A stretch of DNA of 64,000 nt from contig CM114271.1 of the NCBI GenBank assembly GCA_050084515.1, positions 33,294,001 through 33,358,000 on the forward strand, read 5' to 3'. The notes below the pieces were generated by a model. It searched no databases. It worked only from the letters and a program-made list of their open reading frames with translations, and was not told where the DNA came from. This document shows, one piece after another, positions 4,525 through 64,000 of the stretch (position 1 is the stretch's first letter; every line of letters begins with the position of its first letter). The translations under genes and the position numbers were made by a program. Source of the DNA: Blasia pusilla (taxonomy: Eukaryota).

Positions 4525-4526
4525 CC

Positions 4527-5244: not shown

Positions 5245-5372
5245 TGTCGTGCGCATACACATCGTTATACAACATACATCATTGTCATCGAATATACACA
5301 CAAACACGCACGATCCCATGCTAACTCATTGCATCCAAACAATGAGACAAGAAGTACTAAAATATCTCCAAT
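5245..5372 (-). repeat. Terminal repeat B2 (~128 bp) of the MTase retroelement
   Basis: Direct repeat of 13203-13330 (tgtcgtgcgcatac...aatatctccaat). Confidence 0.9.
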
Positions 5373-5752
5373 TAAAGTAAGATCCAATCTCTCTCTACAC
5401 CATCTCACACCATAGCTCTCAAAGGTGTGCACTCTCTCTCATGTCAAACCAAACCCACTCTCCTAATGAGAGGCTTGGGTTACACTCACAAGGCAAGGGA
5501 CCATAGCTTTGCCACCTCATGCTAAGAGGTTCAACAAAGAGAGAATGAGCTCTCAAGCTCTCTCTCCTGGAGGTATACCCCTCCCCTCACCCAAGCTCTC
5601 TCCATGGTAACCTATTCTCCCAAGTCACCTCCTTGGCTCTTGACCCGATGTAGGACGTCAAGGGCCACTTACCAAAAATAGCAAATTGATCATATACTCA
5701 AAATGGTGCTTAAGGGAAAACCTGCTCTCTCAGGTTTCCCAGGGCCTCAGCA

Positions 5753-6769
5753 TGTCGTGCGCCTACTCTCCTTGAACGTTAATCTTGTTTGTTGCGGAAG
5801 CGTGCGTTCAGTAGGTCACGCTCTCAACGCTGATCTGCATCCAAACACGCACTTTGGTTAGTCGGGTCTTGGATCAATCAGCGGGATTACTTTCCGAGTT
5901 CTCATCTCGGACTCTCTCTTCAAGCTCAACCTTCCTAGTTTCGCGGTTTCCAACACGGGCAAGTCTCGAAAGACTTGGGACAGACTTTTCAGTCGGTTCA
6001 AGAACGAAACGGCGTTTCGCGCCTAGCGGTTCCAACTGTCCGATGAACATCCAATGAGTTCCTCACCAAGACTCGCACAAGTGAATCTCGGGTTGGAATC
6101 CAAGTGTGGCATACAAAGTCCACTCCCTTGGATCAGGTTTGGGTTTCGGGTTTCCGCGCCAAACTCCCGTTTCATCCGTGCCTCAAACGCCGTTTGGCGC
6201 CCAAAGTGGGGTTTCGTTTCCCGAGACATCTCAGAGAAGGTACTCCCCTTACTAGTACTTCTGGGGATCTCCGGGGCCCCTACATTTAGGAAAGACACCG
6301 GGCCCCTCAATTGGCCCTCAACCCGATTGCTCTCTGAATCGTTTTCGGCCAATATCTCAGCCTGTACTTATGCGTTTGCTGAGATCTTTGGTGCGTTGGA
6401 AGCGTCTCAAGATCAGCTTTCCAACGCGCCCTTAGTTGTCCCAAACGCATCTCGGAGCTCAACGTTATGGTCCTAAACACAGTCAGATTCTCCCAAACGC
6501 TAGTCATGTTCCAAATGGTTCTCACCTCTTTGGCAACCAACCTCCAAGACTCAACTCATCTCAAGTCTCGCTCGCGTTTGGTCTAGGTTTCCTGGTCGCG
6601 ACCACTAATGCATGAAACGCACAACTCGTTTCGCGTTTCGTCTCTTAGACTTTTCCAAGAGACTCTACCAAACGCCTCTCCAAAGCGCAAACCTCGCGGC
6701 GTGAGTTCCTTTGAGTTCGATGTTTCGCATGCGCGTATTTGGTGTTGTTTGGTTATGAGGGTCGCGACA
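5753..6769 (-). repeat. 3' LTR of chromovirus copy 2
   Basis: Adjacent to the PPT; near-identical to 12077-13108. Confidence 0.95.
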
Positions 6770-7459
6770 CTCACCCCTCCTTAGAAGGTTGATGTCCTCA
6801 TCAACGCAAACCTTATTGATGTTAAGTTCTGGGAAGCCGACCCCTTAACACAGAATCGCGTTCTGGTAGCTAACCCGCAATTCCTCTTTTGGCTTAAGTC
6901 TTAGGTTTGTCGTAAAGACTTAGACTTATTAGCTTCGCTTTCGATGAGCCTAGACTAGTTCGCCAAACTAATCTAACTATCAAAATAAGCTCACTAAGTC
7001 TGCAACCTAACACTTCACTCACTATTTGTAAACAACCGCCTGTCTACCTAGCCAACTCGTACTACTTTTGGGTCACCTGTATTCCACCTAGGCGCGTCAC
7101 TAAGTTCAGTCATGAAACATGAATGAGATCACCACAAACCCCAAGACAGACTCATCTCGCTTTCGCCGACATTAGGGCGAGCCCAAATGCTAGTACTTCA
7201 ACACTTGGTCCTGATCTAGATGCCTTATCTGAATACAAGCTCTCACCTCAAATACTCATTGTTTGGTCTCCTTGACTTACATCCTAAGCATATGAAGAAC
7301 TACTCATTGCCTTGCACAAACCAAACTCAAAATTACAATACAAGCATCGAATCTCCAAATCCATGTCTTCTTTATTGCAACAACTAAACCTTTCTAGTTA
7401 CAACGGGTTATCGGCCCAAGCTTTCCGGTCACAAGTTATGTCCATTGCTTCACCATGTA

Positions 7460-10400
7460 CTAACGCACGTGCCTTTCTTGCATCCATCTGAAGTCACGCA
7501 ATGCTTCTTGCGCATGTTCTAGATCCGCCTCCGCAATCCAAGTCGCCTCTTTCACATGATAGCCTTTCCACTTGACCAAGTACTCGTACTTGGTGGCCCT
7601 ACGTCTGGAACGCAGAATAGTCTCAACCTCAAACTCTGGTTCCTCATTTCTGATGACCGGTTGTGGTCTCAACATCCTCCTTCGCTCCGGACGCACATTG
7701 TCTTGAAGATACTTCTTCAATAATGACACATGGAAAGTCGGGTGAATCTTGAACTCGATTGGCAGCTCCAACGTGTACACATCCTCAAACGGCTTTGCCT
7801 TGATCACATACTGTCCAAAGATACTTGGTGACAATTTATGAACAATTCTTTCGGAAGAGTGAGATTCTTAACACTCAACCACACTTGTTCCCCAACTTGG
7901 AAACTCACATGGCGCCGACTTTTGTTAGCATGCTTTACGTACCTTAGTTGAGCCTTGGCGAGACTTTCTCTCGCTCGCTCTTGTCGTTCGTGCATTTCCA
8001 CTAACAAACATTCCGCCGTTGCTTGACGAGTGTGTGTCGATGTATTGCCCTTCGAAAGAGCTAAGTCAAGAGGCCCTTCTGGTTCTCTTTGATACGCCAG
8101 AAGAAACGGAGATTCTCCGGTTGCAGAATGCTTAGTCTAGTTGTAACAATACTCAGCCATACTTAACCACTTGGCCCAATCTCTTTGGTCTGCACTCACG
8201 TAATTCCGTAAGTATTGGTTTACGATCGAGTTTACTTTTTCCGTTTGCCCATCCGTTTGAGGATGGAAGGCCGTACTAAAGCTGAGTTTGGTCCGGAACC
8301 TCCTGAATAGATGTTTCCAAAAGGCACTGGTAAACTTCGGATCCCGATCGGACACAATGCTCCTAGGCAATCCGTGCGCACGCCACCAACCATCCAGGAA
8401 TAGTCGGGAAGTCGCGAGGCGTCCGAGACTCTCTCGTCGGCACAAACCTCCCAACTTGCTAAACCGATCAACTATCACAAGTATAGCGTTGTATCCCTCG
8501 GATTCGGAAGACTCGTAATGAAATCCATGCTAATGCTTTGCAAGGGTCCCTCCGGATTGGCAAAGGATGAAGTAAACCTTGTTTCTTTGCATAAGACACG
8601 CGGGTTCGCCTGGCAGTCACGCATGTTTTCACATATTGAGCAACATCTTCCTTCATGTTGGGCCGGAAGAACCTCTTAGACAAAACAAAGAAGAGTGGAT
8701 TTCTCCCTTTGTGTCCCGCCAAAGGTCCATCATGACATTCCACAAACACCTTGGTCCGTAGCTTGCCTTGGCCTACATAGATCCTACTCTGCTTAAACCT
8801 TAGCAAGCCGTGTCTCAAACTCAGATTGGCCACCTTCTCGCCCCGCTTTAACTTCCCAAGGTACTCCCTCGCTTGCTCATCCTTCATGTATCCTTCACGA
8901 ATCCTTCTTTCCGGTCTGTTTCATTAGGGAACATTGCTCTCAACACTTGTGTCGTCGATGGCATGTGTTCATCCCTGCGACTTAACGCATCTGGAATGAC
9001 ATTGTCTTTCCCCGGCTTGTGGATTAGCTCCACATTCATCAACGCCAAGGTATCATGCCACCGAAGTTGTTTTGGCGTCACGCGATCCTAGGTCTCAAAA
9101 TACTTGAGCGATATGTTATCGGTGAATACTCGAGTCTGTGAAGTCCCAAATAGTGACGCCACTTCCTCAAGCAATGAACCACCCACAAACAACTCTTTCT
9201 CATGAGTAGGCCATCTCCTTTCGGTGTCGGTCAACTTCTTGCTTTCGTATGCTCTGGTCTCCTTTTGCACCAACATTCTGCAATCGCGAAATCACTAGCA
9301 TCCGTGTGCACCTCGAACGGTTGTTCAAACTCCGGAAGTTTGAACTGTTTCTGAGAGGATCTCTTTGACTCGATTGAACGCTTTATCCACTTCCTCGGTC
9401 CATGTAGTATTGGCAAACTTTGCGGTCCAATCCGTGAGAGGTTTCACTATGCCCGAAAAATTCTTCACGTATGTCCGTAAATCGACGACTCCGATGAACC
9501 TTCGCATCCCTTCACCGTGGAAGGCGGTTCCCATTCGCAATCGCGCTCACCTTTTCCATGTCTGGACTCACTCCATCCGCATCGACCACATGTCCCAAGA
9601 ACTTGATCTTCGTCAAACCGAACTCACTCTTATCCGCATTCGATATCTGACTTGTTCGCCTAAGTTTCTCAAACACCGTCTTCAAATGTCGGCGTGCTCC
9701 TCTAGTGTTTTCGAATAGATGAGTATGTCATCTATATAGATGATCACAAACTCATCCGTCTCCTTGTGAAAGATGGAGTTCATCAAAGTGGTAAACGTCG
9801 AGGCGCATTACAAAGACCGAAGGCATTACTACAAACTCGAACGAACCGTATCTCGTCCTCTGAGCGGTCTTCTCTACATCCGCCGGCAATCCGAATCGAT
9901 AATATCCTGATTTCAGGTCAATCCGCTGAAATACTTGGCACCTGAAAATCGATCAAAGAGGTCATCCATCCTCGGTAGAGGATAGTTATTCCTTATCGTC
10001 ACTTTATTCAGCGCCCGATAATCAACACAGAGTCTCAACTTCCCATCCTTCTTCTTGACAAAGAGGACGGGCGCCCCATAAGGTGACTTGCTCGTTCGGA
10101 TGTAACCCCTCTCTAGGAGTTCACCCAACTGTTTCTTCAACTCAGCAAGTTTCTCTTGATTCAACCTATATGGTGCCTTTGAAGGTGGTTGAGATCCTGG
10201 TATCACCTCAATCTTATGATCAACCGCTCTATGTGGTGGCAACTCAGTCGGAAGCTCCTTAGTCAACACATCTTCAAATTCTTTCACAACTCTCTTGAGT
10301 GTTTCAAGGATCTCCTTGAAGCTGAGTTCTGATCTCTGCATCTTGCGCTTGCATCATCCTCTACTCGTCTCATCAAGCAAAGGAATCCTTCCTCTAACTC

Positions 10401-12017
10401 GCCAAACTCGTCCTCGTGATGGCGTTCACCAACTCCGTCTTTCTAGGCACCTCACGAACCAATCGACATCCGTCCGTTTGCCGTAACCAAGACGCTTAAC
10501 CTCAAAGGTCTCCGCCTCAGTTCCACCTCATACGCATCCAAGAACGTGTTCCCCAAGACTCGTCGATACCGTCCATCTAAATCTGTAAAATTCTCCTTCA
10601 ACTCAAATACTCGCATCTCACAACTAGCCCTAAAACCAGATCGATGTCGGTGGGATTTTCCTCCCGCGAATCCTACCCTAATGGGTTCATCCGCTTTGGT
10701 GGTTGGCAATCCCAACGTTTTACGATTCTCGGACTCAAGAATGAGTGCGAAGCACTTTGTATCAACGAGCAACATCACATCGCGATTAGCGATCTTGGAT
10801 CCTAGGTAAACCAAATTGGGCGTTCTCTTGGTGACTCAGAGATGTATCTAGATCTCCCTCCGATAAATGCTTAGCGGCAAACGCAATCATACTCGGTTTA
10901 CTAACCTTGGGCCTCACACATTCCTTAGCCATATGCCCGGGTTCGCCACAATTATAACAAATCACTTTGGCATTCGTTGACTTCGTAAACGGCGGCCTCT
11001 TCGGCCAGCGTTGAGTTCCACTCGTTTTTGGCTGAGGAGAGACCCTCCGTGGTCGCGCTCACCCCCATTCCAAACCCTCTTGGATGTCCCTTTATTCTTC
11101 AGAACTTAGAAAAACTTTTTGTCTCAAAGGGTTTCGGGTGTTGGACCTCATCGTCCCCAATCCGCTCGGCTAGTCTCAAGAGGTCCGCGCACGTCTCTGG
11201 GATGTGAGGCATACGAAAGAGAGCCTTCTCGGCACTCGGTTTGAGCCCACTTAGGAAGATCACCTTTTAGTATGTTCGTCGTGGAAAGTGCACTCATGAG
11301 CGCACTAAACTCTCACATAAGCACCAAGTGATCCACTGGCGCAACCTCACCACCTCCATGCCATCGTGGTACTCCTGATATTCCGAGTGAATCGGTTCCC
11401 AATCAACTCCTTGAAATCTTCCCAACTCAACGTTTTCCCACGACCTAGATGTTCTTTCCGGTGAGCCGTCCACCAATGGAGAGCGTGATCCTTGAAACGT
11501 GACCGCTCTGATCACCTTGTCTTGTTCATCTCGCTTTTGCGCTTGAAATAGAGTTCGAGTTCCATTAGAAACTCGCTCACTTTCGAGAACGCCCCATTCT
11601 TGTGAATGGCGTTGGCAAATTAGTCTTACAAAGCTTCTTGCCGAGCTAGAGGCTCCATTTGACTTGAATTCGAGATCACCTTACTGTTCAGCCATCTGGT
11701 CCGCCATCACCTTCATCAATCCCATCATTTGGGTATAAAAGGCCGGATCGTTTAAGTTTGGACCCGAAGGTCCCGCGGAAAGATTTTCGGTTGGAACATC
11801 CTCATGTATGCGGGACTCGCACGGGAGTCGCAAATTCCACCTCCGCTCTCGGTCCGTCATTGATTCGTCTCTTGGCTTCTTTGCTTTGACTCGCGGTTTC
11901 TCGGTTCTTCGTCCTTGGTCGCCATTTGTAAAGTCGTCGCCTTTTCTCAGATCTCCTCCTCGCCTCTTGCGTTCCTCCTCGGCGTCGCGGTCTTCCGGCT
12001 ACCTTGAGTTCTCCCAA
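7460..12017 (-). pseudogene. Frameshifted gag-pol of chromovirus copy 2 (gag-CCHC-PR-RT-RH-INT-chromodomain)
   Basis: CYNCGEPGHMAKEC ~10920-10960; PR ~10450-10814; RT 9913-10341 ([28 protein letters not shown]); RH (VHTDASDFAI); INT (IVSDRDPKF, HPQTDGQTE); chromodomain 7460-7640 (FEVETIL...YLVKWKGY...ATW). Confidence 0.93.
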
Positions 12018-12076
12018 ACGCCCAGATCTTCAACGACCCCAAGTTCACGCTCATCAAGGAATTGCTCGATACCACG

Positions 12077-13108
12077 TGTCGTGCGCCTACTCTCCTTGAA
12101 CGTTAATCTTGTTTGTTGCGGAAGCGCGCGTTGATGAGGTCACGCTCTCAACGCTGATCTGCATCCAAACACGCACTTTGGTTAGTCGGGTCTTGGATCA
12201 ATCAGCGGGATTACTTTCCGAGTTCTCATCTCGGACTCTCTCTTCAAGCTCAACCTTCCTAGTTTCGCGGTTTCCAACACGGGCAAGTCTCGAAAGACTT
12301 GGGACAGACTTTCTGGTCGGTTCAAGAACCTGAAACGGCGTTTCGCGCCTAGCGGTTCCAACTGTCCGATGAACATCCAATGAGTTCCTCACCAAGACTC
12401 GCACAAGTGAATCTCGGGTTGGAATCCAAGTGTGGCATACAAAGTCCACTCCCTTGGATCAGGTTTGGGTTTCGGGTTTCCGCGCCAAACTCCCGTTTCA
12501 TCCCGTGCCTCTGAAACGCCGTTTGGCGCCCAAAGTGGGGTTTCGTTTCCCGAGACATCTCAGAGAAGGTACTCCCCTTACTAGTACTTCTGGGGATCTC
12601 CGGGGGCCCCCTACATTTAGGGAAAGACACCCGGGCCCCTCCAATTGGCCCTCAACCCGATTGCTCTCTGAATCGTTTTCGGCCAATATCTCAGCCTGTA
12701 CTTATGCGTTTGCTGAGATCTTTGGTGCGTTGGAAGCGTCTCAAGATCAGCTTTCCAACGCGCCCTTAGTTGTCCCAAACGCATCTCGGAGCTCAACGTT
12801 ATGGTCCTAAACACAGTCAGATTCTCCCAAACGCTAGTCATGTTCCAAACTGGTTCTCACCTCTTTGGCAACCAACCTCCAAGACTCAACTCATCTCAAG
12901 TCTCGGCTCGCGTTTGGTCTAGGTTTCCTGGTCGCGACCACTAATGCATGAAACGCACAACTCTGTTTCGCGTTTCGTCTCTTAGACTTTTCCAAGAGAC
13001 TCTACCAAACGCCTCTCCAAAGCGCAAACCTCGCGGCGTGAGTTCCTTTGAGTTCTGATGTTTCGCTTGGCGCGTATTTGGTGTTGTTTGGTTATGAGGG
13101 TCGCGACA
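12077..13108 (-). repeat. 5' LTR of chromovirus copy 2
   Basis: Adjacent to the PBS; near-identical to 5753-6769. Confidence 0.95.
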
Positions 13109-13202
13109 CAACAGGTCATCCTCAACCTACTGAGCGTGTCCTCCACTACTCCCGAAGGCGCTCTACTAGATCTCACCGATCTATCCTAAAAGACGTAACA
13201 AC

Positions 13203-13330
13203 TATCGTGCGCATACAAATCGCTACACAACATACATCGTTGTCACCAAACACACACACAAATACGCACAATCCCATACTAACTCATGGCATCCAAACAA
13301 CGAGACAAGAAGTACTAAAATATCTCCAAT
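13203..13330 (-). repeat. Internal repeat B1 of the MTase retroelement, preceded on the minus strand by a polypurine tract
   Basis: Copy of 5245-5372. Minus-strand TAGGGGGGACG (13331-13341) lies directly upstream. Separated from A2 by a 2-nt spacer (13201-13202). Confidence 0.88.
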
Positions 13331-13517
13331 CGTCCCCCCTAGCTGGTGGTTAAGTCCCTCTAACTCCAGATAGCCATCTATCCCTACCTACCATGACATA
13401 CATCTCTCAGACGCTAAGAGCAAGAAGGCCGGGTGCTCGTGTGGCCCCATTGTTAGTCGCCTTTTTGTCATCCATGTCATAGAAAAAGTCAAAATTGAAA
13501 CCTACCTAGTATCTCCT

Positions 13518-13665
13518 CTATGTACATCTGGGACACATCCATTGTCCCTGAGAAATCCTGGTGAGAGGTGGCGTCAAACATGTCATAGGCCAACCTCTCC
13601 AACATCCATCATAGACTAGCATCGTGGCCGCACCACGGGCAGAATCACACAATATACAACGCAAG
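13518..13665 (-). other. PHD (C4HC3) zinc finger at the integrase C-terminus
   Basis: CILCDSARGAATMLVYDGCWRGWPMTCLTPPLTRISQGQWMCPRC matches the PHD consensus CxxC...LxCDxCxxxxHxxCLxPPLxxxPxGxWxCPxC, with two ligands mutated (C>Y, H>P). Confidence 0.85.
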
Positions 13666-16600
13666 CCTGCAGGAACTACTGCTAAGCTTGGATCTACTGT
13701 ACCATCAATGTTAGGAAGGTGACATGGCGTACAATTACGCACATGGTCCTTCCATACCATACCATCGCGTCCCTCAAACAAGAAAACACCGGATGGAAAA
13801 ATATCACGCACTCTCAGGATAGTGGGCCTTGCAATCACATCCAACGTCGTCGGTGCCGTCTGTTGCAAGTAGACATAATCTCCCTGATGAAACCTCCGAA
13901 TAGTTGGTCGATAACCACCACCCCGAATAGTCGCATACCTCAACGTATCCCGATGCTGCACAATCGCCAAGTTCTCGAATACCATGGGCATCACTCTCCG
14001 AAACAACTCAGCCCTCTAAGAACATGCTCGCATCCATACATCTGGGTCATCAAGGTCCAGCACCTCACCAGCATCTCGATGAATGGCCATAGGTAAATCT
14101 GGCTATGGGCCATAAAGTAGCAAGTACGGTGAAAAAGACGCTAAGGATGCCTGCCTGCTGAATCTGTATCCCATTGCCAACCAAGGCAACAAGAGGTCCC
14201 AATCTCCTAGGTGACCTCTCTGCAAGCCATACTTGCGTAAACCCCTCTTCACCGTCTACACAACTCTCTCCGCTAATCCATCCACCTCATGATGATCTCG
14301 CGAAGTCGTGCGATGGTCGATCAGCGCCTGATCACACAAGGCCTGGAACTCACCGTGAAACTTAGTACCCTGGTCTGTCAACACCTCAGTCGGTGCGCCA
14401 TAATGACTCAGCACTATGTCAAGGAAGGCATAAGCTACTCCCTCACTCACTTTGTCAGGCAATGCAACCAACTCAATCCACTTCGAGATCTGCTCGACCA
14501 TCACCAACACATAACGACTGTGACACTCCGTCAAAGGCAAAGGTCCTGCAAAATCCAAACTCGATCTATACCCTAAGCCCATGATCGATAATGGATGCAA
14601 CTGTGGAGTCGGAGCATTGAACCATGCTTGGACCCGATCACACACCATGCACTTGGCAACAAACTGCTGAACGTTAGTCTGCATGCCTCGCCACCAATAC
14701 TGAATCTGGAGCAAGCTGTTCGTCCGCTTCATCCCAAAGTGACCCAACTCCTCGTGGGCATGCTGCACTAGTCGTGCTCTTTATGAAGGGTGCGACACTA
14801 CGCGTACTCTGCCATCCTCCCAAATCCTCAAAACATGTGTCCCCTCCCAACGGAACCGTCTGGCCCGTTGTAGGATCCGATCCTGCTCTCTAGCACCCAC
14901 GGTGCTCGCAACGCTGCCAGTCAGAAGGTACTCCAAGACTACTTCATCATCATGAATATCTCGGCCATCTGTCGTCTCCTCACTGGCCTCACCCTCCAAG
15001 GACTCTCCACTAGACCTCACCATCAAAGTCTCCACACTCTGGCTCTCCATAGCCAACATGTCTAAATAGGCTGACGCGTACCATCCTGGCATTAACTCCT
15101 CATCACTCTCTCCATGCCATCGAGTTCCAGTCGCATCTTGTTGACTCGGGCATGGGTTAAAACTCAACCCATCTGCATCCTGGTTGAGCGTCCCAGGTCT
15201 ATGTACCACCTGAAAATCATACTCCTACAACAACAGAGCCCATCTCGCAAGCGTCCCTTTAAGCTTGTCGGACTCCATCAATCACTTCTGTGGTTTCCGA
15301 ATAAGTAACCCTTGAAATGTGCGACAGCCCAGACTACAGCCAAGCACTCACCCTCATATGAGCTCTACTTTGCCTCTGCAGTGTTGTTCGAGTGGCTAGC
15401 ATAAGCCACCACAAACTCTCTACCCTCATCATCATGGTGGATGAGCACCGCTCCAAGCCCCAACATGCTCCAATCTGTGTGCAACTGGAAAGGACGCCCC
15501 CTGATCAGTCTCCTCAAGATGAGCGTGGACGTCAACCTGTCCTTGAGCAACTGAAATGCTCGCTCCTGCTCATCCCCCCAATGCCACTTGTGATCCACTT
15601 TGTTTAGCAAGGTCAGCGGCTTCGCAATCAAACTAAATCCCTTGACGTACCGCCGATAGAAGTTTTCCAATCCCATGAATGCGCGAACACGGCTCACATT
15701 TATAGGACGTGGAATGCGTGAGATGGCCTCTACCTTTGTCTGTTGAACACCAAGGCCCCCTGGGTATATCGTATGACCCAAGTACTCAATCTGATCGTAG
15801 AAGAACTTGCACTTGCCTAGATGTAGCTTCAGCCCATGTAATTGCAATCGTCGAAACACCTCCTCAAGATGTCGCTCATGCTCCTCAACCGTGGCCCTAA
15901 AGACTACGATGTCATCAATATAATACCTAGCAAAATCCAGACCAGCCAAGATCCTATCCATGAGCCTCTGAAACTCAGCCGAGGCGTTCTTTAACCCAAA
16001 TGGTAAGAATCGCCACTGGTACAAACAATCCTTCCCATGAGGATCGATGCCCCAAAATGCCATCTTCTGCCTGTCCTCCAATCTGATAGGCAGCTGATGG
16101 TATCCGGCTTGCAAATGCAATCAACTGAAAACCTTTGCATAACCAATCGCATCAAAGATCTCCTCAGGGGTGGGCATGGCATACCTATCGGACTTCGTTT
16201 GCCGATTGATAGGTCGGTAATCCCCACACATCCGCCTATCCGTCTAGTTGCCATGCACATCCTTCTTGGCGAGCATGACAATGGCAGATGCATACTCCCC
16301 ATGCGACATCTCCACTAGTCCTGCTCCAACCAAGTCCTGGCTCCTACTCTGAATCAGAGCCCTCCCCATATCACTGTACCTGTAGGCTCGTCGGAAGATC
16401 TGCGTATCACTCGAAAACTCAATGCGGATCCCCGGTCCCTTCAGCGTATCCAAATCCTCCATGCTAAATGCAAAGCAGCTCCTATAACTCTTGAGGAAGT
16501 GATGTATTCGGCGCCGCTCTCCTCCTCTCAACTTAGGGCCCATATCTGGCTCCCAAGTCTCCATCGTGACTACGGTAGGACTCGCCGGCGCGGATATCGG

Positions 16601-16807
16601 TGGTTGCTATGGTGCAACCCCGTCTCGAACAACAACACTCGACCACTCTCTTGCACCCAACTGCAAACTCTGATCTCCTCCACATACAGTGCTCAGAACC
16701 ATGCTCAATGTTGTGGCTATCATCTCCTGGCATACCTGCAAAACATCCCAAGAAGTCCAAGGGTGTCTCTCTCAATCTCCCCTGGTGTGTCAATCTCCTC
16801 ATGTCTC
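13518..16807 (-). pseudogene. Decayed pol of the MTase retroelement: RT, RNaseH, DDE integrase, C-terminal PHD finger
   Basis: ORFs 16244-16564 and 15365-16120 (GYHQL, FLPFGLKNA, YIDDIVVF, LHTDWSMLGLGAVL); 14256-14768 (AHEELGHFG, CMVC, LDFAGP, TDQG, GLAER); 13518-14006. Confidence 0.92.
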
Positions 16808-17811
16808 TGTCGCGACCCTCATGACCAAACAAGTGCCAAGCGGAACATCGGAACATTAGCGGGCTCACGCTAAGATGGTTTGCGCGTTGGAGTTGTCTCA
16901 AAGAGAAGACAAGAGACGAGACGCGAGCGAGAAGTCGCGTTTCAGATGTGATGGTCGCAACTCAAAAACCTGGACCAAATGCGGAATGAGACTTGAAAGA
17001 AGTCGAGTCTAGGAAGTGGGTTGCCAAAGGAAAGATCCGGATTTGGAACGCCACTTGCGTTTGAGAGTTTCCGACTGTATTTATGGCCATAACTTTTAGC
17101 GCCAAGATGCGTTTGGAGAAAATAAGAGTGCGTTGGAAAGCTTATGAAGAGCCGGTTCAAACACATGAAAGATCGCTGCAAACGCATAAGCAGCAGCCGA
17201 GATACGACCCGAAAACGACTGTGAGTGGAGTCGGGTTGAGGGCCACAATGAAGGGCCCGAACCTCTTTTCCCAAAGGGCAGGGGTTATTGGAGAACCCCA
17301 GAAGTACTAGTAAGGGGGAAGGTCTCCGAGAGTGCTTGGAACCCAAACCCCACTTTGGGCGCCGCGGGCGCTCAAGGGCATGGAACGGAACGCGAGTTTG
17401 GGCGTTGGGTTGGAAAACCTGCACCAAGTCCATTGAGGCGATTTTAGACATCCCTCTTGGATTTCACGCCGCGACTCAATTACTTGGGTCTCGGTTCGGA
17501 ACTCACACAAGGACCGTTGAATAGTTGGGATCGCTAGGCGTGCAAGTCTTGCATTTTTGAGATCCCTGGACTAACCAGGAAGTCTGTTCCAAGTCTTGAA
17601 GGACTTGCCATGTGTTGGGAGCTAGGAACTAAGGAAGGTTGAGCTTGATGAGACGCCGAGTTTGGGACTCGGTGGGTTGGAACGCCGGTTGGCCAAACCC
17701 GACTAACGAGAGTGCGTGTTTGGGTGCAGATCGGCGAGGAGTTCGTGACCTACTAAACGCACGCTTCCGCAACACTAAAGATTGACGTTCAAGGAGAGTA
17801 GGGGCGCGACA
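16808..17811 (+). mobile_element. Solo LTR of a diverged chromovirus subfamily
   Basis: TGTCGCGACC...GGCGCGACA, ~1 kb, similar to the other chromovirus LTRs. Perfect 5-bp TSD GTCTC (16803-16807 and 17812-17816). Confidence 0.94.
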
Positions 17812-17904
17812 GTCTCGCCCCCAGCCACTGCCTCCACCGTCTTGGTAGGCATGGGGCTCACCAACGCAACTACTGTGATCTGTCGCGATCTCATCCAACG
17901 CTGC

Positions 17905-18704
17905 TCAGCCACTCCCAAGCTGAAGATCCATGTCAAGCAGTTCAGGTCCATCGCCTGACCTAAGACATGGCGTCATGATGCCTCTGATACTGACGGTACT
18001 GCCGTCACTCATGTGGGAAATCCCATCGCCCACTCTCTCTTGTCGGTGTTGGGCTCCACCAACCTCTGAAGACCGGCCTCCTTGAATGCATATGAAGCAG
18101 GAAAACTCACAAACGTGGGAAAGGCTGCCCGCGGCTTGCCTACCCTGTTGACCACAGTCAACGGAAGTCGATCATCGTGCCTCACTGCCTGTGAGCGACG
18201 ACCTAGATCCACAATGGAATCCACTAACAAATGGGAGGGGCGCTCCACTCTCGCATATGCCCTCCGTAACACCGCATGGGGCACCAAGTTGGTCCATCAT
18301 AGACGCGGGCGATGGGCTCTAGAACCTACACTCGCCGCATCCAAGAACAATACTGGACCGATCCAGGCACGCTCTAGATGAGCACTCGTCACCACCCGTG
18401 ACCTGGAGTTTCCTAAGATTGGCACATTCTCCAGAATGTAGGCTGGAGAACGAGACTGGTGCTCCTGCAACTGCCGTAAGACCCTCAACATCTCCCAAAA
18501 CAACTTGGACCGAGTGTCAGCCAACCCGCTGCCTCGTCCAGCACTCGATTTGCCTTGACATGGCCAACCGGAAATCACCAAATCAATGGTGCCTAACCGG
18601 TCTAAGTCATGCGCCCCCAACAACGAAATATCCCTCGGTAAGGAACTCTGGTACCCTTGTACCGCGCATGCAGACAATAAGTCAGGAAAACATAGGCGTA
18701 ACTG
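17905..18704 (-). pseudogene. DNMT3-like C5 cytosine DNA methyltransferase domain (motifs IV-X) within the retroelement pol
   Basis: IDLVISGWPCQG (motif IV, catalytic PC), GLADTRSKLFWE, YILENVP (VI), DAASVGSRAHRPRL*W (VIII), REWAMGFP (IX), R(*)RHVLGQAMD (X). Contains in-frame stops. Confidence 0.88.
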
Positions 18705-19201
18705 CACCATCTCACACCATAGCTCTCAAAGGTGTGCACTCTCTCTCATGTCAAACCAAACCCACTCTCCTAATGAGAGGCTTGGGTTACACTCACAAGG
18801 CAAGGGACCATAGCTCCGCCGCCTCATGCCAAGAGGTTCAATAAAGAGAGAATGAGCTCTCAAGCTCTCTCTCTTTCTCTCCTTGAGGTATACCCCTCCC
18901 CTCACCCAAGCTCTCTCCATGGTAACCTATTCTCCCAAGTCACCTCCTTGGCTTTTGACCTGATGTAGGAGGTCAAGGGCCACTTACTAAAAATAGAAAG
19001 GTGATCATATATTCAAAATGGTACTTACCTAAAATAGTAAGTTGCTCAATATGGCTCCAAATGAACCGAAACGAAGGGGAAACCGGCTCTCTCAGGTTTC
19101 CCAGAGCCTCAGCAGGTAATCCTCGACCTACTGAGTGTGTCCTCCACTACTCATGAAGGCGCTCTACTAGATCTCACCGATCTATCCTAAAAGACGTGAC
19201 A
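18705..19201 (-). repeat. Terminal repeat A1 of MTase retroelement copy 1
   Basis: Matches 5397-5752 plus 13114-13200 and the reverse complement of 58524-~59000. Fused directly to the MTase by a deletion. Confidence 0.9.
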
Positions 19202-20734
19202 GAAAGGAGTGGAACTCAACGGAAAGCCAAGAGGGTCAACATTCTCAAAGTCACCAAACGCCAAAGTGATTTACTACAATTGTGGCGAACCCGGGCATAT
19301 GGCTAAGGAATGTGTGAGGCCCAAGGTTAGTAAACCAAGTATGATTGCGTTTCCTACTAAGCACTTATCGGCGGGAGATCTAGATACATCTCTCCAAGTC
19401 ACCAAGAGAACGCCCAATTTGTTTTACCTAGGATCCAAGATCGCTGATTGCAATGTGATGTTGCTTGTCGATATAGGTGTTTCGCACTCATTCTTGAGCC
19501 CAAGAATCTTGAAGGCATTGGGATTGCCGTGGGATGCAGAGTATTTGAGTTGAAGGAGAATTTCAAAGTTTGCGACATGGACAGAATCAATGGAGTCTTG
19601 GGGAACACGTTCTTGGATGCGTATGAGGTGGAACTGAGGCAAAGACCCTTGAGGTTGAGCATCTTGGTTAATGGCAAATGGACGGACGTTAGATTGGTTC
19701 GTGAGGTTCCTAGAAAGACGGAGTTGGTGAACGCCGTCACGAGGACGAGTTTGACCGAGTTAGAGGAAGGATTCCTTTGGTTGATGAGACAAGTAGACGA
19801 TGATAGAAGCGCAAGATGCAGAGATCAGAACTCAGCTTGAAGGGGAATCCGTGAAACACTCAAGAGAGTTGTGAAAGGATTTGGATATGTATTGACTAAG
19901 GAGCTTCCGATTGAGTTGCCACCACATAGGGCAATTGATCATAAGATAGAGGTGATTCCCGGATCTCAACCACCTTCAAAGGCGCCATATAGGTTGAATC
20001 AAGAAGAATTTGTAGAGTTGAAGAAAAATTTGGGTAAAACTCCTAGAGAGGGGTTACATCCGAACTAGCAAGTCACCTTATGGAGTGTCCGTCCTATTTG
20101 TGAAGAAGAAGGATGGAAAGTTGAGACTCTATGTTGATTGCCCGGCACTGAATAAAGTGACGATAAGGAATAACTATCCTCTTCCGGGGATGGATGACCT
20201 CTTTGATCGATTCTCAGGTGCTACGTATTTCAGCCGCACTGAGCTAAAATCAGGATATTATCAGATTCGGATTGCCCAAGCGGATGTAGAGAAGACTGCG
20301 TGTAGGACAAAATACGATTTGTTCAAGTTTGTGGTAATGCCTTTCGGTCTTTGTAATGCGCCTCCGACGTTTACCACTTTGATGAACTCCATCTTTCATA
20401 AGGAGACGGATGAGTTTGTGATCATCTACATAGATGACACTCATCTATTCGAAAACACTAGAGGAGGATGCTCGACATATGAAGACGGTGTTTGAGAAAC
20501 TCAGGGCGAACAAGTTGTATGCGAATGCGGACAAGAGTGAGTTCGGTTTGACAAAGATCAAGTTCTTGGGACATATGGTTAGTGCAGATGGAGTGAGTCT
20601 AGACATGGAGAAGGTAAGCGTGATTTCCGAATGGGAACCGCCTTCCATCGTGAAGGGGATGAGGAGGTTCATCGGAGCGGTCAAGTTTTACCGGACACAT
20701 GTGAAGAACTTTTCGGGAATAGTGAAACCTCTCA

Positions 20735-22455
20735 GAAGATTTTTTCCCTTGGAATCTTGACCGTAAAGAGAATTTTGTGACAAAATTTCATGATTTATGG
20801 AGTTTATAATGAAGAGGAGGGCCACAAAATGAAGAAGAAAGAGGATGATGAATGATTTATAAGTAATAATCCAAGTCTTCTTTGGATTTTGACCTTTTTA
20901 TTGAAGCCTCATGAGTTCCCACCATTGGATGGAGCTGAAACATGAGGGATGTGGGGTTGCAAAGGCCCTCTTGCTTTTGGACCATATGAATCTTCCATAT
21001 CATACTTCATGCTCAATTTACAATTGGGAGACCATATTCAAGGTTTCACATTTTTTATTCCTTCTTTGAGTGGTCATTTGGAGATTTTTTTTTTCCACTG
21101 GGATCGTGACACTAAAGTACATGTTTTGACAAAATTTTATGATTTATGGACTTTTTGGTGAAGAGGAGGGCCAAAAAGTGAAGAAGAAAGAGGACGATGA
21201 GTAATTTATGAGTATGTTCCAAGTTTTCTTTCGATTTTAATCTTTTTATTGAAGTATCGTGAGTCCCACCGTTGGATAAAGCTGAAACATGAGGGATGTG
21301 GGGTTGGCCTCTTGCTATTGGGTGGTGTGGATCTTCCATATCATATATATTTAATTTAAAATTGGGAGACCAGATTTAGGGTTTTGGATTTTTTATTCCC
21401 TCTATAGGTGGTCATTTGGAGATTTTTTTTCCACTAGGATTTTGACACTCAAGTGCATGCTTTGACAAAATTTCATGATTTAAGGACTTTGTGGCAAAGA
21501 GGAGAGATAGAAAATGAAGAAGAAAGAGGACAATGAGTAATGTTCCAAGTCTTCTTTCGATTTTGATCTTTTTACTAAAGTATCATGCGTTCCCACCGTT
21601 CGATTGAGTTGAAACATGAGGGTTGTCGGGTTGCAAAGGCCATCTTACTGTTGGATGGTATGGATCCTCCATATCATACACATTGTTCAATTTAAAACTG
21701 GGAGACTATATTCAGGGGTTTGAACTTTTTAAATCCCTCTACGAGTAGTCAATTGAAAATTTTATTTTTCCACTAGGATCTTGACACTGAATTTCATCTT
21801 GTGAAAATTTTTCATGATTTATGGACTTTTTGGTGAAGAGGAGGGATAGAAAATGAAGAAGAAAAAGGATGATGAGTGATTTACAAGTAATGTTCCAAGT
21901 GTTCTTTGGATTTTGACCTTTTTACTGAAGCATGAGTGATGTGGGTTTGAAAAGGCCCTCTTACTTTTGGACAGTGGAGATCCTCCATATCATACTTCAT
22001 GTTAGATTTAGAATTGGGAGAATATTTTTAGGATTTTGGACTTTTAATTCCATTTATAAGTGGGCATTTGAAGATTTTTTTCCACTAGGATCTTAACACT
22101 GAAGTGCATGTTGTGACAAACTTTCATGATTTATGGACTTTATGGTGAAGAGGAGGATCAGAATACAAAAAAGAAAGAGGATGATGAGCGATTTACAAGT
22201 AATATTTAACGTCTTCTTTGGATTTTGATCTTTTTACTGAAGCATGATTAGTTTCCAACATTGGATTGAGCTGAATTTTGAGGGATATGGGACTGGAAAA
22301 AATCTCTTGCACTTGGACCGTTTGGATCTTCCATACAAAAGTTCATACTCAATTGGGAAACCAGATTTAGGGTTTTGGATTTTTCATTTCGAATCTTCTC
22401 TGGTTATGCATTTAAAGATTTTCCTTTTTTTTGGGGATCCTGACAATTGTTGTGA
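20735..22455. repeat. Tandem repeat, about 5 diverged units of ~340 bp
   Basis: The motif gagattttttt..ggatcttgacac..caaaatttcatgatttatggac..gaagaagaaagaggatgatgag recurs at ~20735, 21080, 21420, 21755, 22070 and 22415. A remnant lies in opposite orientation at 26888-26957. Confidence 0.9.
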
Positions 22456-58523: not shown

Positions 58524-59589
58524 TGTCACATCTTTTAGGATAGATCGGTAAGATGTAGTAGAGAGCCTTCGCGTGTAGTTGAGGACACACTCAAGAGGTC
58601 GAGGATGACCTGTTGAGGCTTTGGGAAACTTGAGAGAGCATGTTTCCCCTTCGTTTCGGCTCATTTGGAGTCATATTGAGGAACAAACTATTTTAGGTAA
58701 GTACCATTTTGAGTATATGGTTGACTTTCTATTTTGGGAAGTGGCCTTTGACCTCCTACATGAGGTCAAGAGCCAAGGAGGTGACTTGGGAGCAGAGGTT
58801 GCCATGGAGAGAGTTTGGGAGAAGAGAGGAGTATACATCAAGGAGAGAGAGCTTGAGAGCTCATTCTCTCGTTGTTGAACGTGTTGACACAAGGCAGTGG
58901 AGCTATGGTCCCTTGCCTTGTGAGTGCAACCCAAGTCTCTCATTAGGAGAGTGGGTTTGGTTTGATATTGAGAGAGACATGTGAGAGTGCACACATGTGA
59001 GATGTATAGTGTTGTGAGAGAGATTTCATCTTATTTTACAAAGAGAGAATTGAGAGGGTGAGAAAGCTCCATGGGAGAGCTCGCTAGTTGCTCGATATTT
59101 GGTGCAGGTTGGGGACCGTGTTCCCCACTTCATGGCTTATGGGAGTGCTCACGGGAGCAAGAGCCGCGCTATTTTGACGTTTGTGTGTCGATTTTTCATG
59201 TGAGAGAGTGGCGCGCGAAAGCGCTACCCAATTTTTTATAGGGATTGAGTATGGGGGCGGGTTGCCCCATGCCGGTGCTCTCAGGAGCACCATGTAGCTT
59301 GCTGATTTGTGCAGGTTTTACATTTTCGTTGGGAAAAATCAGTGCGGAAGTGCTGCCAAAATTTATGTAGGAGAAGAGACATTGGGATTTACAACAGTCC
59401 CCTTCAATATTTATTGGAATGTTTGATTCAAAATATTTTTAAAATCATCGTAGATCGTAAAGTTGTGCACGCTGTGCAATAGACAATGCATGATTTGGAG
59501 CTGCGAGCAGAAAGTTATGGCCAATTTGGCAAAACTGCCATTGTTAGGCAATTTTTAGGGTAAAATTGTTCAAACCGTAAATCTTCCAC

Positions 59590-59750: not shown

Positions 59751-62700
59751 CCTACCGCCTCTCAGAGCCGCGTTCGGCCGTTGTCCACCATTGGTTGCCA
59801 TTGCCACTATTATCGAGCGGGCGATCTTCCACGATGGCCGTTGATTCTCTGACTTGCGCCGCCACCACGTTCTTTGTTGTGGCCGTCACCGTCATCGCAG
59901 TTTTGTCATCAATGAATAATGGTAGGTGAGCTTGGATTATGGTGTTTGAGTTTTTTATTTCATTCTGCAATGTTTTGATTGGTAGTCGCTCAACGACAAT
60001 CGAGTACCACGCTGTGACGCCTGTAGCCACAACGTATCGTCGATTGCTACGCCGTGCCGCTCGTGACCGCACCGCACCGTCTTGATCACGGAGCCGCTCC
60101 TTCACTAAGGAGTAGAGCGTCTGTATTGCTGATTGAGGAGGGTATGACACAGAGTGCCGCATCCCATTATCGAGTGCCGTGCCATTTTGTAGTCGTTTCC
60201 GTGCCGTACCGTACTGCTGGATCCGCACCGTATATTGAGGAGGCTTGAGCAATTTCAGTTCGCGAGGAGTACGACTTGCTGATTGGAGGAGTTGTCTTCA
60301 CGATGGAGTTGGGGTCGAGATTTGTACTTGTCGAGGAGTGACATCGACATTATTGTCATGTTATCCATTTTGGTCTCTTACCCTGCACGTATGAGGGATT
60401 TCCGGGTATTGGGAAGTTATTTGGGATATTGTGCTAATGAAGAGAGCATCGATGATGTATGGGTTTAGGGGACATAGACTTGTGTGGGATGTCGTGTTGA
60501 TGTAGTTGATTTGCCGTACCATGCCGTTGGTTTCCGCAGAGCGCACATCTCAGTGAGAGAGTGTAGATTGAGTGCCGTATGTTAGATTGACGGATTGAGT
60601 GATTACTCGCGAGGTTGAGAGTGATCGCATGAGAGGGGCACGAGGGTCATCACTGCGTCCTTTTGGGACTTTGAGAGGCAAGGAGATGGAGATGAGAGTA
60701 GCTTTAGAGAGTTTACCCAGAGTGGTGCGAGGTTTCAAGAGTCTCCACGTGAGAGACCACCTCGATCTCCTTCTATGTCGTCTTTAGACGAGGGGGAGAG
60801 TGTGAAGGAGTGTGCTAGTGATCCACTGCACACATTGGGTGGTCCTACCAATTGGGCGTACGAGATGGACGACCGGGGTAGAGGACCACATAGGCTTTCG
60901 GGTGCTATAGGCACTATAGAGTTACACGACTTCATTGCGGAGTTTAGGAGTTGGTGTGACTCACTGCAGGCTATGAACTCCAGAGAGTTTAACCCGTTTA
61001 CAACATGGAACGGTATGTTCCAGCATTTAGAGGGGCCACCCATGGACGATTAGTATGAGTTCTCCCACAGATATGCCCAGGAGATTGAGGCATGGTGACT
61101 CTACTATGACCCACACTATATGTCATGGACGAAACCGTTCCTAGATGAGGAGGAGGCGTGAGGAGAGGCTACTTCCTCTTCCACTAGTGATGTTTTAGGA
61201 GGGGTCACTTGCACTGGAGCTGTTGCACCGTCTAGTCGGGTTCGTCCTAGGTTCAACCCCATGGTTGAGTTCTTCGCTGAGTTGAGGGCAAGCCACCAAG
61301 GGGTACGGACGGAGAAGTTACGGAGCATCCACGACTTCTAGAGGCAGCCAAGTGAGAGTTTGCATGAGGCCTGCACCCGCTTGCGCTAGTTGATTAATGT
61401 CACTTAGGGGTGACAGAGGCTTAAGCTATCCAATCATGGTATGCGATGCTAGACTGGACCTGCAGACATGGGTGCAGGAGGGGATGCTTTGTATGAACAC
61501 CTCCCCTACATTGAGGGATGTTTTTAGGACTGCCGAGAACATTGAGCGCAACATGGCGGAGGAAACCGTAGCCACCATGGATTCTGGGCGAGAGCAGTCA
61601 CGATTGCCTCCACCACCAAAGCAGTAACGTGGATTCCGAGATAAGTCTGTAACACCACGAGCTCAGGGAGAATACCAAGAGGCTCTGCCATAGAGACTTG
61701 CGCCTTCATATGCGGCTCAAAAGCAGCCGCCTACGATTACTTGTTGGTCATGTGGTGGAGCCCATCATCAGCATGATTGCACTCGTCAGGGTCATAGGCG
61801 CGTGCCTTAGCATGGAGGAGGAGATGGTGCTGCACCAGGAGGTTATCAGAGTGACTATTGTCAGAGGCACGGTCACACACGCACGAGATGTTTCACCTTG
61901 CACCCTCAGTTACGTCCGGACCAAGGGCTAGAGAGGGCACCAGAGCGAGTTGCCGGTCTGGGTTGGCCTAGAGGTTGTGCATCAGGTGGTCTCATTGGGG
62001 GACGAGGAGTTGGATTTGCCCGAGAGATGGTGGAGTTGCCCGTGGAGGAGGTAGAGTCCCACCACCTAGATGCGTCGAGGGAGACGCCATGCGTGAGCCT
62101 CGGATGGCTACTCAGATACAACAGCTACATTAGTAGATTACTACTATGGCATTGAGGTTACCCGATGCCAGATCCGTGGCATTGACGTCTAATGGAGCCG
62201 CCAGAGATATTTAAGATCTTGGTTGGATGTGCGAGGTTGCCCAGATGGAGGCCGCGCAGTTGTTACGCGTGGAGGAGCGGGAAAGTTGGATCCACAACGA
62301 GGGGAAGCCAGGAAACAGACCAAGATTCCTCATTCTTTTACGTTGTCCGAGGTGATGAGGACCCCATCGATGGATCCTGAACAGAGTTCTCGGAGAGTTG
62401 GTGATCTTGTTGGTGTGCAAGCACATAGATTGATGGGAGAAGCGAGTGTGATGACTCCTATTGCTGATGCCCTGGAGGAGCATCTGTCAAGCACGTTGTT
62501 GGGGGCGGCCACTGTTGTGTACCGCCCTCCTTTGTTCTCTGCTTTCGATGTTATGACGTTGGAAGGTACGCCCGCTGAGTTTTTCCGGCTGGCTGCGGCG
62601 CTCTGGGAGCGTGGAGTTGGAGTTCCTGCATCACGTTCAGAGGTGATTGCAGAGGAGGTGATGGACCTGCCCTTGGAGCTTATGCTCGGGCCATCCACTT

Positions 62701-63574
62701 CAAATTCATGGCAGGCTGCGGTTGCTAGGATAGCGGAGATGCCTGCTAGACCCGCGATAGAGTGTGCCATGGCTTCTCCTAGTGTTGTTTTGCTGGATAA
62801 CCAGGGAGAGGTATTCCAGTTGGTGAGTCCAATAGGTAGAGCTTTTAGTCCACAGTGCGTCTTGTTGGATTCAGGAGCGCAACCTGTGATGTTGGGGAAA
62901 GCATCATTCAGAGGATTGGGCTTGACGAGAGCCAATATGGAGCGTTGTCCATCCCGGATACAAACATCCTTGGGTGGAGTGAGTACCATACAATATATCA
63001 CCCGACATAAGGTTGTGGTGAGGATTCATCTCGGACACCCTACAGATGAGTCTGTGGTGCGAGCCAAGGCGATAGTGACCGATGCATAGTCCTACGACGT
63101 CTTGGTTGGTGGAGCAGTGTTGTACCCAATGGGGTTTTCCCTAGATTATTGGGAGGAGTCAGCGTCCTACAGACCAAGATGGCAGTTAGGTGATGGGCGC
63201 CTTAGATCATTACCCATTCGATTTACAGGTGGAGTGATTGAGCGACGGCCACGAGAGATGGAGACCTTAGCATCATTTAGCAGCGCCATCACTTGGCCTA
63301 GTGATTTGATTGAGAGACATGCCCATGTAGAGGACACTCCCGTTCTTGACATTTCTATGGAGAGGAGTGTCATGGTTGCCGCATCAGTCCTTGGAGGAGA
63401 GATGCCGCTTTGGGGCTCAACTGAGGAGCTTCGATGCTTAGCCACTGAGCATCTGCAGACCACGTGGAGCGAGATGTTTGCACTAGAGCGTGACGGGTCA
63501 GAGGAATATGAGGTAGCCAAGAGTGCTATGATGACACCCTTGGATACCATACCCCTTATGTGGCGCATCCTAAA

Positions 63575-64000
63575 GGAGGGTATTCGGGTGTTGGATCTCT
63601 TTGGAGCGATCAACACTGGGTTAGCTTTTGTTTTGTACGCAAGAGTATGTGTGCAATAGTATCTGTATGTGGAGATTGATGATGTTGCGAGGCGCGCTTC
63701 ACTTCACCATGTGGCGCAGTTACGCCTCCGTTTTCTTGACTTGTTGTCTGCGTCCGCTGTCCACGGATACTAGAGTTCCCTACCAAGGGATATTTCATTG
63801 TTGGGGGCGTAGGACTTGGAGCGGGTAGGGGCCATAGATTTGGTCATTGCTGGTTGGCCGTGTCAGGGCCAATCGAGTGCTGGATGAGGTAATGGGTTAG
63901 GTGACACTCGGTCCTGGTTGTTTTGGGAGATGATGCAGATTTTGTGACACTTACAAGAGCATCAGTCTCATTCTCCAACATACTTTCTGGAGAATGTGCC
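63575..64000 (+). pseudogene. N-terminal part of the DNMT3-like C5 methyltransferase (motifs I-VI), copy 2
   Basis: GIRVLDLFGAINTGL (motif I), YLYVEID (II), RDI (III), IDLVIAGWPCQG (IV), YFLENVP (VI). Same frame as the protease-containing ORFs 62223-63659, with stops. Confidence 0.9.

Follow-up and report, generated by a model that had tools for sequence, protein, structure and literature searches.

What is a cytosine methyltransferase doing inside the coding region of a retrotransposon? Cytosine methylation is the main weapon of plants against transposons, so the usual picture is turned round by a transposon that carries a de novo methyltransferase of its own. The question is raised by a stretch of 64,000 nucleotides from Blasia pusilla (GenBank assembly GCA_050084515.1, contig CM114271.1, positions 33,294,001 to 33,358,000 of the forward strand; hereafter the window), in which two copies of a Ty3/Gypsy element carry remnants of a DNMT3-like methyltransferase (MTase) between protease (PR) and reverse transcriptase (RT). 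Our overall explanation, which we hold with a probability of about 0.8, is that these are two dead copies of the kind of element called 'Gypsy-DNMT3', whose intact relatives have two open reading frames (ORFs) divided by a UAG in a leaky context, and whose MTase would be packaged into particles and methylate the element's own complementary DNA (cDNA).

The two copies belong to a single Ty3/Gypsy family with the order gag-PR-MTase-RT-RNaseH-integrase (INT)-PHD. Window ORFs were called from stop to stop, domains were assigned with Pfam, and copies and repeats were delimited by self-comparison together with reading of the junctions. Copy 1 lies on the minus strand, from 19201 to 5245 including two nested insertions, and copy 2 on the plus strand, from 58524 to the window end, which cuts it; the two overlap in the MTase over 289 bp at 81.7% identity. 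In copy 2, one frame (62253-63998), aligned to residues 449-1019 of the Marchantia protein P0163, runs from the gag end through the aspartic protease (LLDSGAQ) and a linker (62253..63574) into MTase motifs I-VI (63575..64000), where the window end cuts the domain. In copy 1, one frame (18725->17814, 304 residues with three TGA stops read as X) takes in the part of the MTase that begins upstream of motif IV, runs through motif X into the start of the tail (17812..18725) and leads to an RT domain downstream. There follow, all on the minus strand, the C-terminal tail of the Gag-PR-MTase ORF (ERHPWTSWD...VAP, 16610..16800, recognised by its frame and its likeness to the P0163 tail), RT with the start of RNase H (15290..16606; PF00078 at 1.6e-22, PF17919 at 2.1e-16), the RNase H end, linker and integrase (14256..15338; PF17921, Integrase_H2C2, at 1.1e-14 and PF00665, rve, at 5.6e-10), and the integrase C-terminal region with a PHD finger at its end (13518..14015; PF00628, E 1.5e-5). 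The PR-RT-RNaseH-INT order with an H2C2 motif and a DDE integrase is that of Ty3/Gypsy, and a DNMT3-like domain within such a coding region is a mark of Gypsy-DNMT3.

An earlier note, made from the letters of the sequence, had proposed this family, the position of the MTase between PR and RT, the PHD finger after the integrase, the in-frame run from PR into motifs I-VI in copy 2, motifs IV-X leading to RT in copy 1 and the overlap of the copies in the MTase, and Pfam, the alignments and the relatives described below bear all of this out. The span that it gave, 13518-18704, covers what is left of the coding region of copy 1; the whole element reaches from 19201 to 5245. It was also right that both copies are pseudogenes; they are fossils. 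Copy 1 has lost gag, PR and the MTase N-terminus by deletion, has taken two nested insertions, and contains 12 stops (three in the MTase, three in RT and six in RNaseH-INT-PHD) and one frameshift, located near 15290-15338. Copy 2 contains 15 stops, nine of them, with two frameshifts, in a gag region that retains a zinc-knuckle remnant (60880..61912, P0163 residues 9-354) and six in PR-MTase; five stops fall within 63402-64000. The protease and gag of copy 2 had no Pfam match at E ≤ 0.01 and are placed by the P0163 alignment only.

By sequence, by profile and by predicted fold the MTase is nearest to DNMT3A/B, as judged from PDB profile and fold rankings. The Pfam profile PF00145, proposed earlier as a check, matches both copies above its cut-off of 22 bits (copy 1, E 1.1e-12 and 5.1e-12, 48.5 bits; copy 2, E 3.9e-10, 40.1 bits). 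When the PDB was searched by phmmer with copy 1 as the query, DNMT3A, 3B and 3C led (best 3.6e-8), with M.HaeIII at 2.5e-4; a profile built from 25 family members gave DNMT3A at 3.3e-28, DNMT3B at about 1e-24, plant DRM at 1e-17 to 1e-13, M.HhaI at 4e-10 and DNMT2 at 2e-7; DNMT1 chains were absent from the matches at E ≤ 1e-3. The uninterrupted MTase domain of the metagenome locus L019 was modelled with AlphaFold (AF2; predicted local distance difference test, pLDDT, 96.2), and Foldseek ranks 1-50 with this model were all DNMT3B, 3A or 3C (E about 2e-20, template-modelling scores of 0.72-0.83), although in the aligned folds no more than about 21-23% of residues are identical. All ten motifs stand in canonical order in P0163 and L019, without the rearrangement of the DRM type, and the window copies divide them between motifs I-VI (copy 2) and IV-X (copy 1). 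Copy 1 itself holds GWPCQG with the motif IV cysteine, ENV with the motif VI glutamate and AHRPR with the motif VIII arginines. A look-up of the MTase in the Protein Atlas returned generic PF00145 clusters only, with one streptophyte.

The family is not confined to the window. An HMMER scan of 1.84 billion representatives returned 3186 proteins at E ≤ 1e-3, 89 of them at E ≤ 1e-30, and the nearest named matches (53-63% identity) come from Marchantia polymorpha, Calypogeia fissa, Sphagnum species and Marchantia paleacea. Marchantia polymorpha has a dozen such gene models (for example Mp_4g09160, 1278 aa, gag-PR-MTase), and Closterium species show the same domain order at about 35-40% identity. 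These bryophyte and Closterium relatives are previously unremarked gene models, and the distribution that they describe is new. Domains were placed with phmmer probes on the 150 best representatives of the scan: 19 are of type I, with the window order PR-MTase-RT; another 63, among them a Scenedesmus 'pol', are of type II, with RT-RNaseH-MTase-INT(-PHD); and 68 are MTase-only fragments. The trees comprise transposon MTases only. FastTree on 162 rows separated type I from type II at the midpoint with support 88; an IQ-TREE quick search on 66 of these rows (47 architecture-unassigned rows, seven near-duplicate type I rows and 42 random type II rows having been removed) gathered the 29 type II rows, without exception, on the same side of a branch with a Shimodaira-Hasegawa-like approximate likelihood ratio (SH-aLRT) of 97, and grouped the window copy with Calypogeia, Marchantia and two metagenome loci, L002 and L010, in a clade of nine rows (SH-aLRT 100). 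No protein named Klebsormidium was among the named matches listed from the homology and cluster searches, and kinship with the published Klebsormidium family is suggested by architecture only.

Among metagenome contigs one scan confirmed 113 relatives, and we retained 80 of these. Decay is usual among them, with any ORF of at least 400 aa in just seven of the 31 closest loci. The apparently uninterrupted L019 consists of an ORF1 of 1369 aa with gag, protease and MTase, a TAG, and in the same frame an ORF2 (1047 aa) that encodes RT, RNase H, integrase and PHD; L022 and L010 are arranged alike, L022 ORF2 also has the PHD finger, and the RT region of copy 1 is 75% identical to L010 ORF2. The suggestion that the MTase is a fixed part of the family stands to the extent that every relative with enough sequence has it, a count that is biased because the relatives were all retrieved via the MTase. 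As a separate observation, positions 1-127 and 8769-8895 of a distant relative, L034 (JACCDP010336710.1), are 100% identical over 127 bp; the contig could have been assembled from a circle or from tandem copies, or a terminal repeat could have collapsed to give these matching ends.

The stop between the MTase and RT proved to be a property of the family. We located the start of the RT ORF at 22 metagenome loci and in the window and walked upstream in frame: a stop stands at the homologous boundary in 23 of 23 loci, 17 times as TAG and six times as TAA, and is followed directly by CAA or CAG in 22. Because the stop is conserved at this place throughout, the TAG of copy 1 (16607..16609, minus strand) is a family feature and not a disabling mutation. 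The full hexamer CAR-YYA, which after UAG forms the leaky-stop signal of tobacco mosaic virus (PMC2754532, available text), is present at five of the 23 loci, namely the window (TAG CAA CCA, 16609-16607), L010, L019, L021 and L022. The Marchantia gene models that end just past the MTase agree with the same pattern. From this sequence context Gag-PR-MTase would be the abundant product and RT-RNaseH-INT-PHD its readthrough extension, so that the MTase would be made in Gag amounts. The earlier view that the MTase lies within the polyprotein thus needs amending: its fixed place between PR and RT stands, but in this clade it is the C-terminal domain of Gag-PR-MTase, with a conserved stop before RT.

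Sister copies of the element are transcribed. We mapped raw reads from three RNA runs, whose species label is shared by the DNA runs that match the sequence best, on 13201-19201 at a likeness of at least 85%, and obtained 4819, 5521 and 4888 reads. An indexed search of sequencing runs had returned no RNA run with the sequence, and these raw reads are the sole source of the RNA evidence. First mates fell on the plus strand about 10-100 times more often, which by the usual library convention puts the RNA on the minus strand, in sense with the element. Depth reached about 73-190 in RT-INT-PHD and 28-85 in the MTase, and fell to about 0-2 inside the solo LTR (long terminal repeat) nested in copy 1. 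Each run contains reads that link 16800/16802 with 17812 and skip this nested LTR, which shows that the MTase tail and RT adjoin each other on one RNA in the copies that are expressed. Two further joints were seen in RNA only, one skipping 1071 nt (15367-16439; 5, 13 and 3 reads) and one skipping 31 nt (15650-15682; 7, 14 and 9 reads); their ends are not GT..AG on the element strand, and they are probably expressed copies that carry deletions and lack the RT core.

The termini of the element follow an unusual plan. The standard layout, with two identical flanking LTRs, a primer-binding site and a polypurine tract before the 3' LTR, is not that of this family; in its place copy 1 and the metagenome locus L030 have the pattern A1-body-B1-A2-B2. 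In copy 1, all in sense on the minus strand, A1 (18702..19201) is the 5' terminal repeat and starts with TGTCAC, B1 (13204..13330) is 89.7% identical to B2 (5247-5372), A2 begins 2 nt from B1 (first part 13109..13200, 92.4% identical to 19110-19201) and resumes beyond a nested element (second part 5373..5755), and B2 (5245..5372) forms the 3' terminus and ends in ...CACGACA. A1 is 92.6% identical to A2 (over 5395-5712) and 84.7% identical to the corresponding repeat of copy 2 (58524-59012). The repeats of L030 are A1 1676-2017, B1 10238-10350, A2 10350-10691 and B2 10693-10805, with 2 nt between B1 and A2, ends TGTC...GACA and a duplication of AAGG; copy 1 has the same TGTC...GACA termini, and its flanks, TTTC and TTTT, are probably a 4-bp target duplication. 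A polypurine-like tract (…GGAGTTAGAGGGAC…AGCTAGGGGGGA, 13331..13375 in copy 1, minus strand) lies immediately upstream of B1, in the same place in L030, and not before A2. L002 shows A1...B1-A2 as far as its contig end, and a 5' A repeat without B occurs at eight loci and in copy 2. Copy 1 and L030 thus show the DIRS-like split direct repeats that go with Gypsy-DNMT3: an A-body-B-A-B arrangement is given for DIRS elements, and by the legend of Fig. 4c of the available text KnitGypsy-Dnmt3 shares it (PMC5890265). Both repeat junctions read ...CA-NN-TG..., and we offer, as a hypothesis only, that the structure equals a two-LTR circle (LTR = B+A) opened at the internal B|A site. Junction reads in sense were far in excess for B-then-A (66, 121 and 78) over A-then-B (7, 6 and 8), which fits transcripts that end inside A2.

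How would such an element use its MTase? Readthrough, packaging, catalytic activity, the substrate and the target of the PHD finger are steps that we infer. Intact relatives would translate an ORF1 of Gag, protease and DNMT3-like MTase that ends at UAG, the same frame continuing into RT, RNase H, integrase and PHD. Most ribosomes would halt at the UAG, leaving the MTase in Gag amounts within the precursor that forms the particle, and a minority would read through and yield the replication enzymes. The MTase, fused to Gag-PR or cleaved off, would stay with the new cDNA and methylate it no later than integration. Among solved structures the L019 PHD finger is most closely related to those of CHD4, PHF12, PHF21A, KDM5A/B, ATXR5, DPF3, UHRF1 and AIRE, a set whose members mostly read unmodified H3K4 or H3R2; the finger on the integrase may direct integration to chromatin without H3K4 methylation.

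Several observations pull the other way. After 17 of the 23 stops the sequence is CAA CCC and not strictly CAR-YYA, and a large share of the 23 loci belong to a single family in decay, which leaves about five independent lineages; the distant type I proteins P0018, P0191, P0193 and P0194 run on without a stop. Only 8, 9 and 17 reads of the three RNA runs are at least 99% alike to copy 1, so the RNA comes from other copies and copy 1 itself is essentially silent. The assignment of that RNA to the minus strand rests on the library convention, and the MTase is covered at a third to a half of the RT-INT depth, which may come from higher divergence or from copies without the MTase. Downstream of A1, neither copy 2 nor L030 shows a convincing primer-binding site. 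Finally, the sole assay published for a Gypsy-DNMT3 domain, that of Klebsormidium in yeast, gave no methylation, a result that its authors call inconclusive in the available text (PMC5890265).

Where the MTase acts is the point at which another account fares best. The enzyme might work in the nucleus and in trans, placing CG marks on new or sister copies that would then mimic gene bodies and escape CHG/CHH silencing, or damping its own family and so sparing the host. We think this possible, though we would not expect it. Options of this kind are discussed by de Mendoza et al. in the available text (PMC5890265), and expression at the level of Gag through a leaky stop would also yield free MTase after protease cleavage; at the same time, no evidence here tells nuclear action from methylation of cDNA in the particle.

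We consider it improbable that the domain is kept for a role that is non-catalytic or does not concern DNA, such as RNA methylation or the tethering of the Gag precursor to DNA or chromatin. The lack of DNA methylation by the Klebsormidium domain in yeast would fit such a role (PMC5890265, available text), as would a replacement that is unusual among C5 MTases: in the 162-row alignment the proline of the catalytic 'PC' has become glutamate (GWECQ) in 18 of 42 type I rows, Closterium included, and in 39 of 71 type II rows. Yet the standard PC is present in the window copy and in the sequences nearest to it, and the catalytic machinery is retained nearly everywhere, with the cysteine in 41 of 42 type I, 71 of 71 type II and 47 of 48 unassigned rows, the ENV glutamate in 161 of 161 rows, and the motif VIII arginines likewise nearly throughout; the modelled fold and its target-recognition region also match those of DNA-bound DNMT3.

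The MTase is under purifying selection, with Ka/Ks (the ratio of non-synonymous to synonymous substitution rates) of 0.11-0.23, contrary to the neutral evolution that the earlier note had named as a test. All ratios are Nei-Gojobori estimates from our own script. Between L019 and L022 the ratio is 0.11 for the MTase domain (323 codons, with the synonymous rate, dS, near saturation), 0.059 for ORF2 (1047 codons) and 0.45 for the tail after the MTase (110 codons); between L019 and L021 it is 0.23 for the C-terminal part of ORF1 (458 codons, dS 0.22, Fisher p 4e-14). The two window copies give 0.23 over the 94 codons of their MTase overlap (p 2e-6), with 25.5 of 64.2 synonymous and 26.5 of 217.8 non-synonymous sites changed, so most of their divergence arose while their lineages were constrained. 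That the MTase is a host DNMT3 fragment captured passively and decaying neutrally, or a host DNMT3 gene beside transposon debris, would agree with two copies full of stops but is highly implausible in view of PR and MTase sharing one frame in copy 2 and in relatives, the same order in liverworts, Sphagnum, Closterium and many metagenome contigs, these Ka/Ks values, and the mainly synonymous differences between the window copies.

The surroundings of copy 1 record a succession of insertions. A1 is joined directly to the MTase at about 18702-18714 through the deletion of gag, PR and the MTase N-terminus, and the A1 terminus adjoins the flank of an interrupted host element. The flanks of copy 1, 4641-5228 and 19200-20734, adjoin each other in a further Gypsy element of a different family, which means that copy 1 inserted into that element; the interrupted element itself comprises 3486-5228 (LTR 3486-4640) and 19200-20734, and comparison with its relative at 5753-13109 shows that the two halves meet without a gap. 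Within copy 1, the MTase ORF tail holds a solo LTR of another Gypsy family (16801..17811, no strand assigned), about 70% identical to the LTR at 5753-6769. A2 is split by a complete LTR retrotransposon of another Gypsy family (5753..13109, minus strand, by self-comparison), a 7.3-kb element whose LTRs (5753-6770 and 12077-13109) are 97.8% identical; it is young, and an 85%-identical relative lies at 23217-26887. Right after the truncated Gypsy fragment, 20778-22247 is made up of tandem repeats, each about 312-336 bp long, in 2-3.4 copies that match at about 80%.

At the other end of the window, copy 2 opens on the plus strand with its A1 repeat (58524..59038, by self-comparison), after which no B repeat follows. 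Between this repeat and gag lie about 1.8 kb (59039-60860), compared with about 1 kb in relatives, a stretch that may be an insertion and that contains an antisense ORF of 181 aa without a Pfam match. A weak match to the gag region of copy 2 (61590-61765; 72.8% over 180 bp) at 52356-52534 may be a third fragment of the family. The ORF at 58045-58590 was considered as a Harbinger-type transposase and dropped, having no Pfam match. The only clear host gene seen in the window is an ORF with a LEA_2 domain at 44016-44861 on the plus strand (PF03168, E 5e-14); together with Gypsy debris of plant type it marks the host as a plant.

The kind of element is already known. The earlier note had pointed to a precedent from a charophyte alga, and rightly so: KnitGypsy-Dnmt3 of Klebsormidium nitens, odd A-body-B-A-B repeats included, was described by de Mendoza et al. 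in 2018 as an acquisition 'in the K. nitens lineage' (PMC5890265, available text), and this published precedent lowers the novelty of the window family. Later papers, as far as their available text goes, speak of 'streptophytes (Gypsy-DNMT3)' and do not name land plants (including bioRxiv 10.64898/2026.05.21.726589). No description of liverwort or moss Gypsy-DNMT3 elements was found in a literature search whose coverage left most subscription journals outside. What is new is the distribution in bryophytes and Closterium, the conserved leaky-stop design, the data on selection, the anatomy of the repeats with integrase-type ends, and the transcription.

These additions bear on what the element could teach. 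The published case is one alga with few copies and an inconclusive test of activity (PMC5890265, available text); with the family present in liverworts, among them the laboratory model Marchantia, and in Sphagnum and Closterium, its MTase under selection, sister copies transcribed and the enzyme apparently made in Gag amounts, the benefit that a transposon might draw from methylating DNA would become testable in a tractable land plant. The same findings would make the fusion older than supposed or else suggest that it has passed from one lineage to another. If the leaky stop is what it appears to be, the MTase would be stoichiometric in the capsid precursor and the particle a compartment that methylates its own cDNA, and if the permuted A-body-B-A-B form holds, a DDE integrase would integrate from a circular intermediate. 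All of these together, that is, an old streptophyte lineage transcribed in land plants, with a leaky stop that makes the MTase stoichiometric with the capsid, a self-methylating particle and a genome permuted by way of a circle, we put forward as speculation and judge unlikely as a whole.

Set beside known systems, the family combines features that occur elsewhere apart. The host enzymes DNMT3A/3B/3C and plant DRM are its best matches in sequence, profile and fold, and motifs I-X are in canonical order here; the element's domain differs from the host DNMT3/DRM proteins in having no PWWP, ADD or DUF partners and in being fused to Gag-PR, and its motif IV is GWPCQG where DNMT3 has PCN. Chromoviruses carry at the integrase C-terminus a chromodomain that presumably targets integration, and a chromatin reader likewise ends the integrase here, in the form of a PHD finger. 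In the type II green-algal elements (Scenedesmus 'pol', KAF8056149.1) the MTase is related (about 40% identity) and the same PHD follows the integrase, whereas the MTase lies between RNase H and integrase. The boundary stop resembles the leaky UAG of tobamoviruses and the gag-pol readthrough of retroviruses, with UAG followed by CAA CCA, CAG TTA or CAA TCA between an abundant and a rare product, except that the abundant product would here also hold protease and MTase, the readthrough itself being predicted from the sequence.

Other retrotransposons have acquired methyltransferases as well. DAM-LTR and EpiLTR elements are, like ours, LTR elements with DNA methyltransferases and chromatin readers, but theirs are adenine MTases or a DNMT4-related domain, and in the available text their authors treat Gypsy-DNMT3 as a separate acquisition (bioRxiv 10.64898/2026.05.21.726589). 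SymbioDIRS-Dnmt3 of Symbiodinium shares a DNMT3-like domain in a retrotransposon and split repeats of the A-coding-B-A type, and for its family de novo CG methylation has been demonstrated in yeast; it is a DIRS element with a tyrosine recombinase, whereas the present family has a DDE integrase with H2C2, TG..CA ends and a 4-bp duplication (PMC5890265, available text). The closest counterpart is KnitGypsy-Dnmt3, compared here by its published description. The nearest relatives of the window family are in liverworts and Sphagnum, and neither a leaky stop nor a PHD finger is mentioned for the Klebsormidium element in the available text of its description; both families are Gypsy-type elements with an unrearranged DNMT3-like domain in the coding region and DIRS-like repeats, both include silent copies, and the domain of the algal element, at Ka/Ks <0.2, is constrained much as it is here (PMC5890265).

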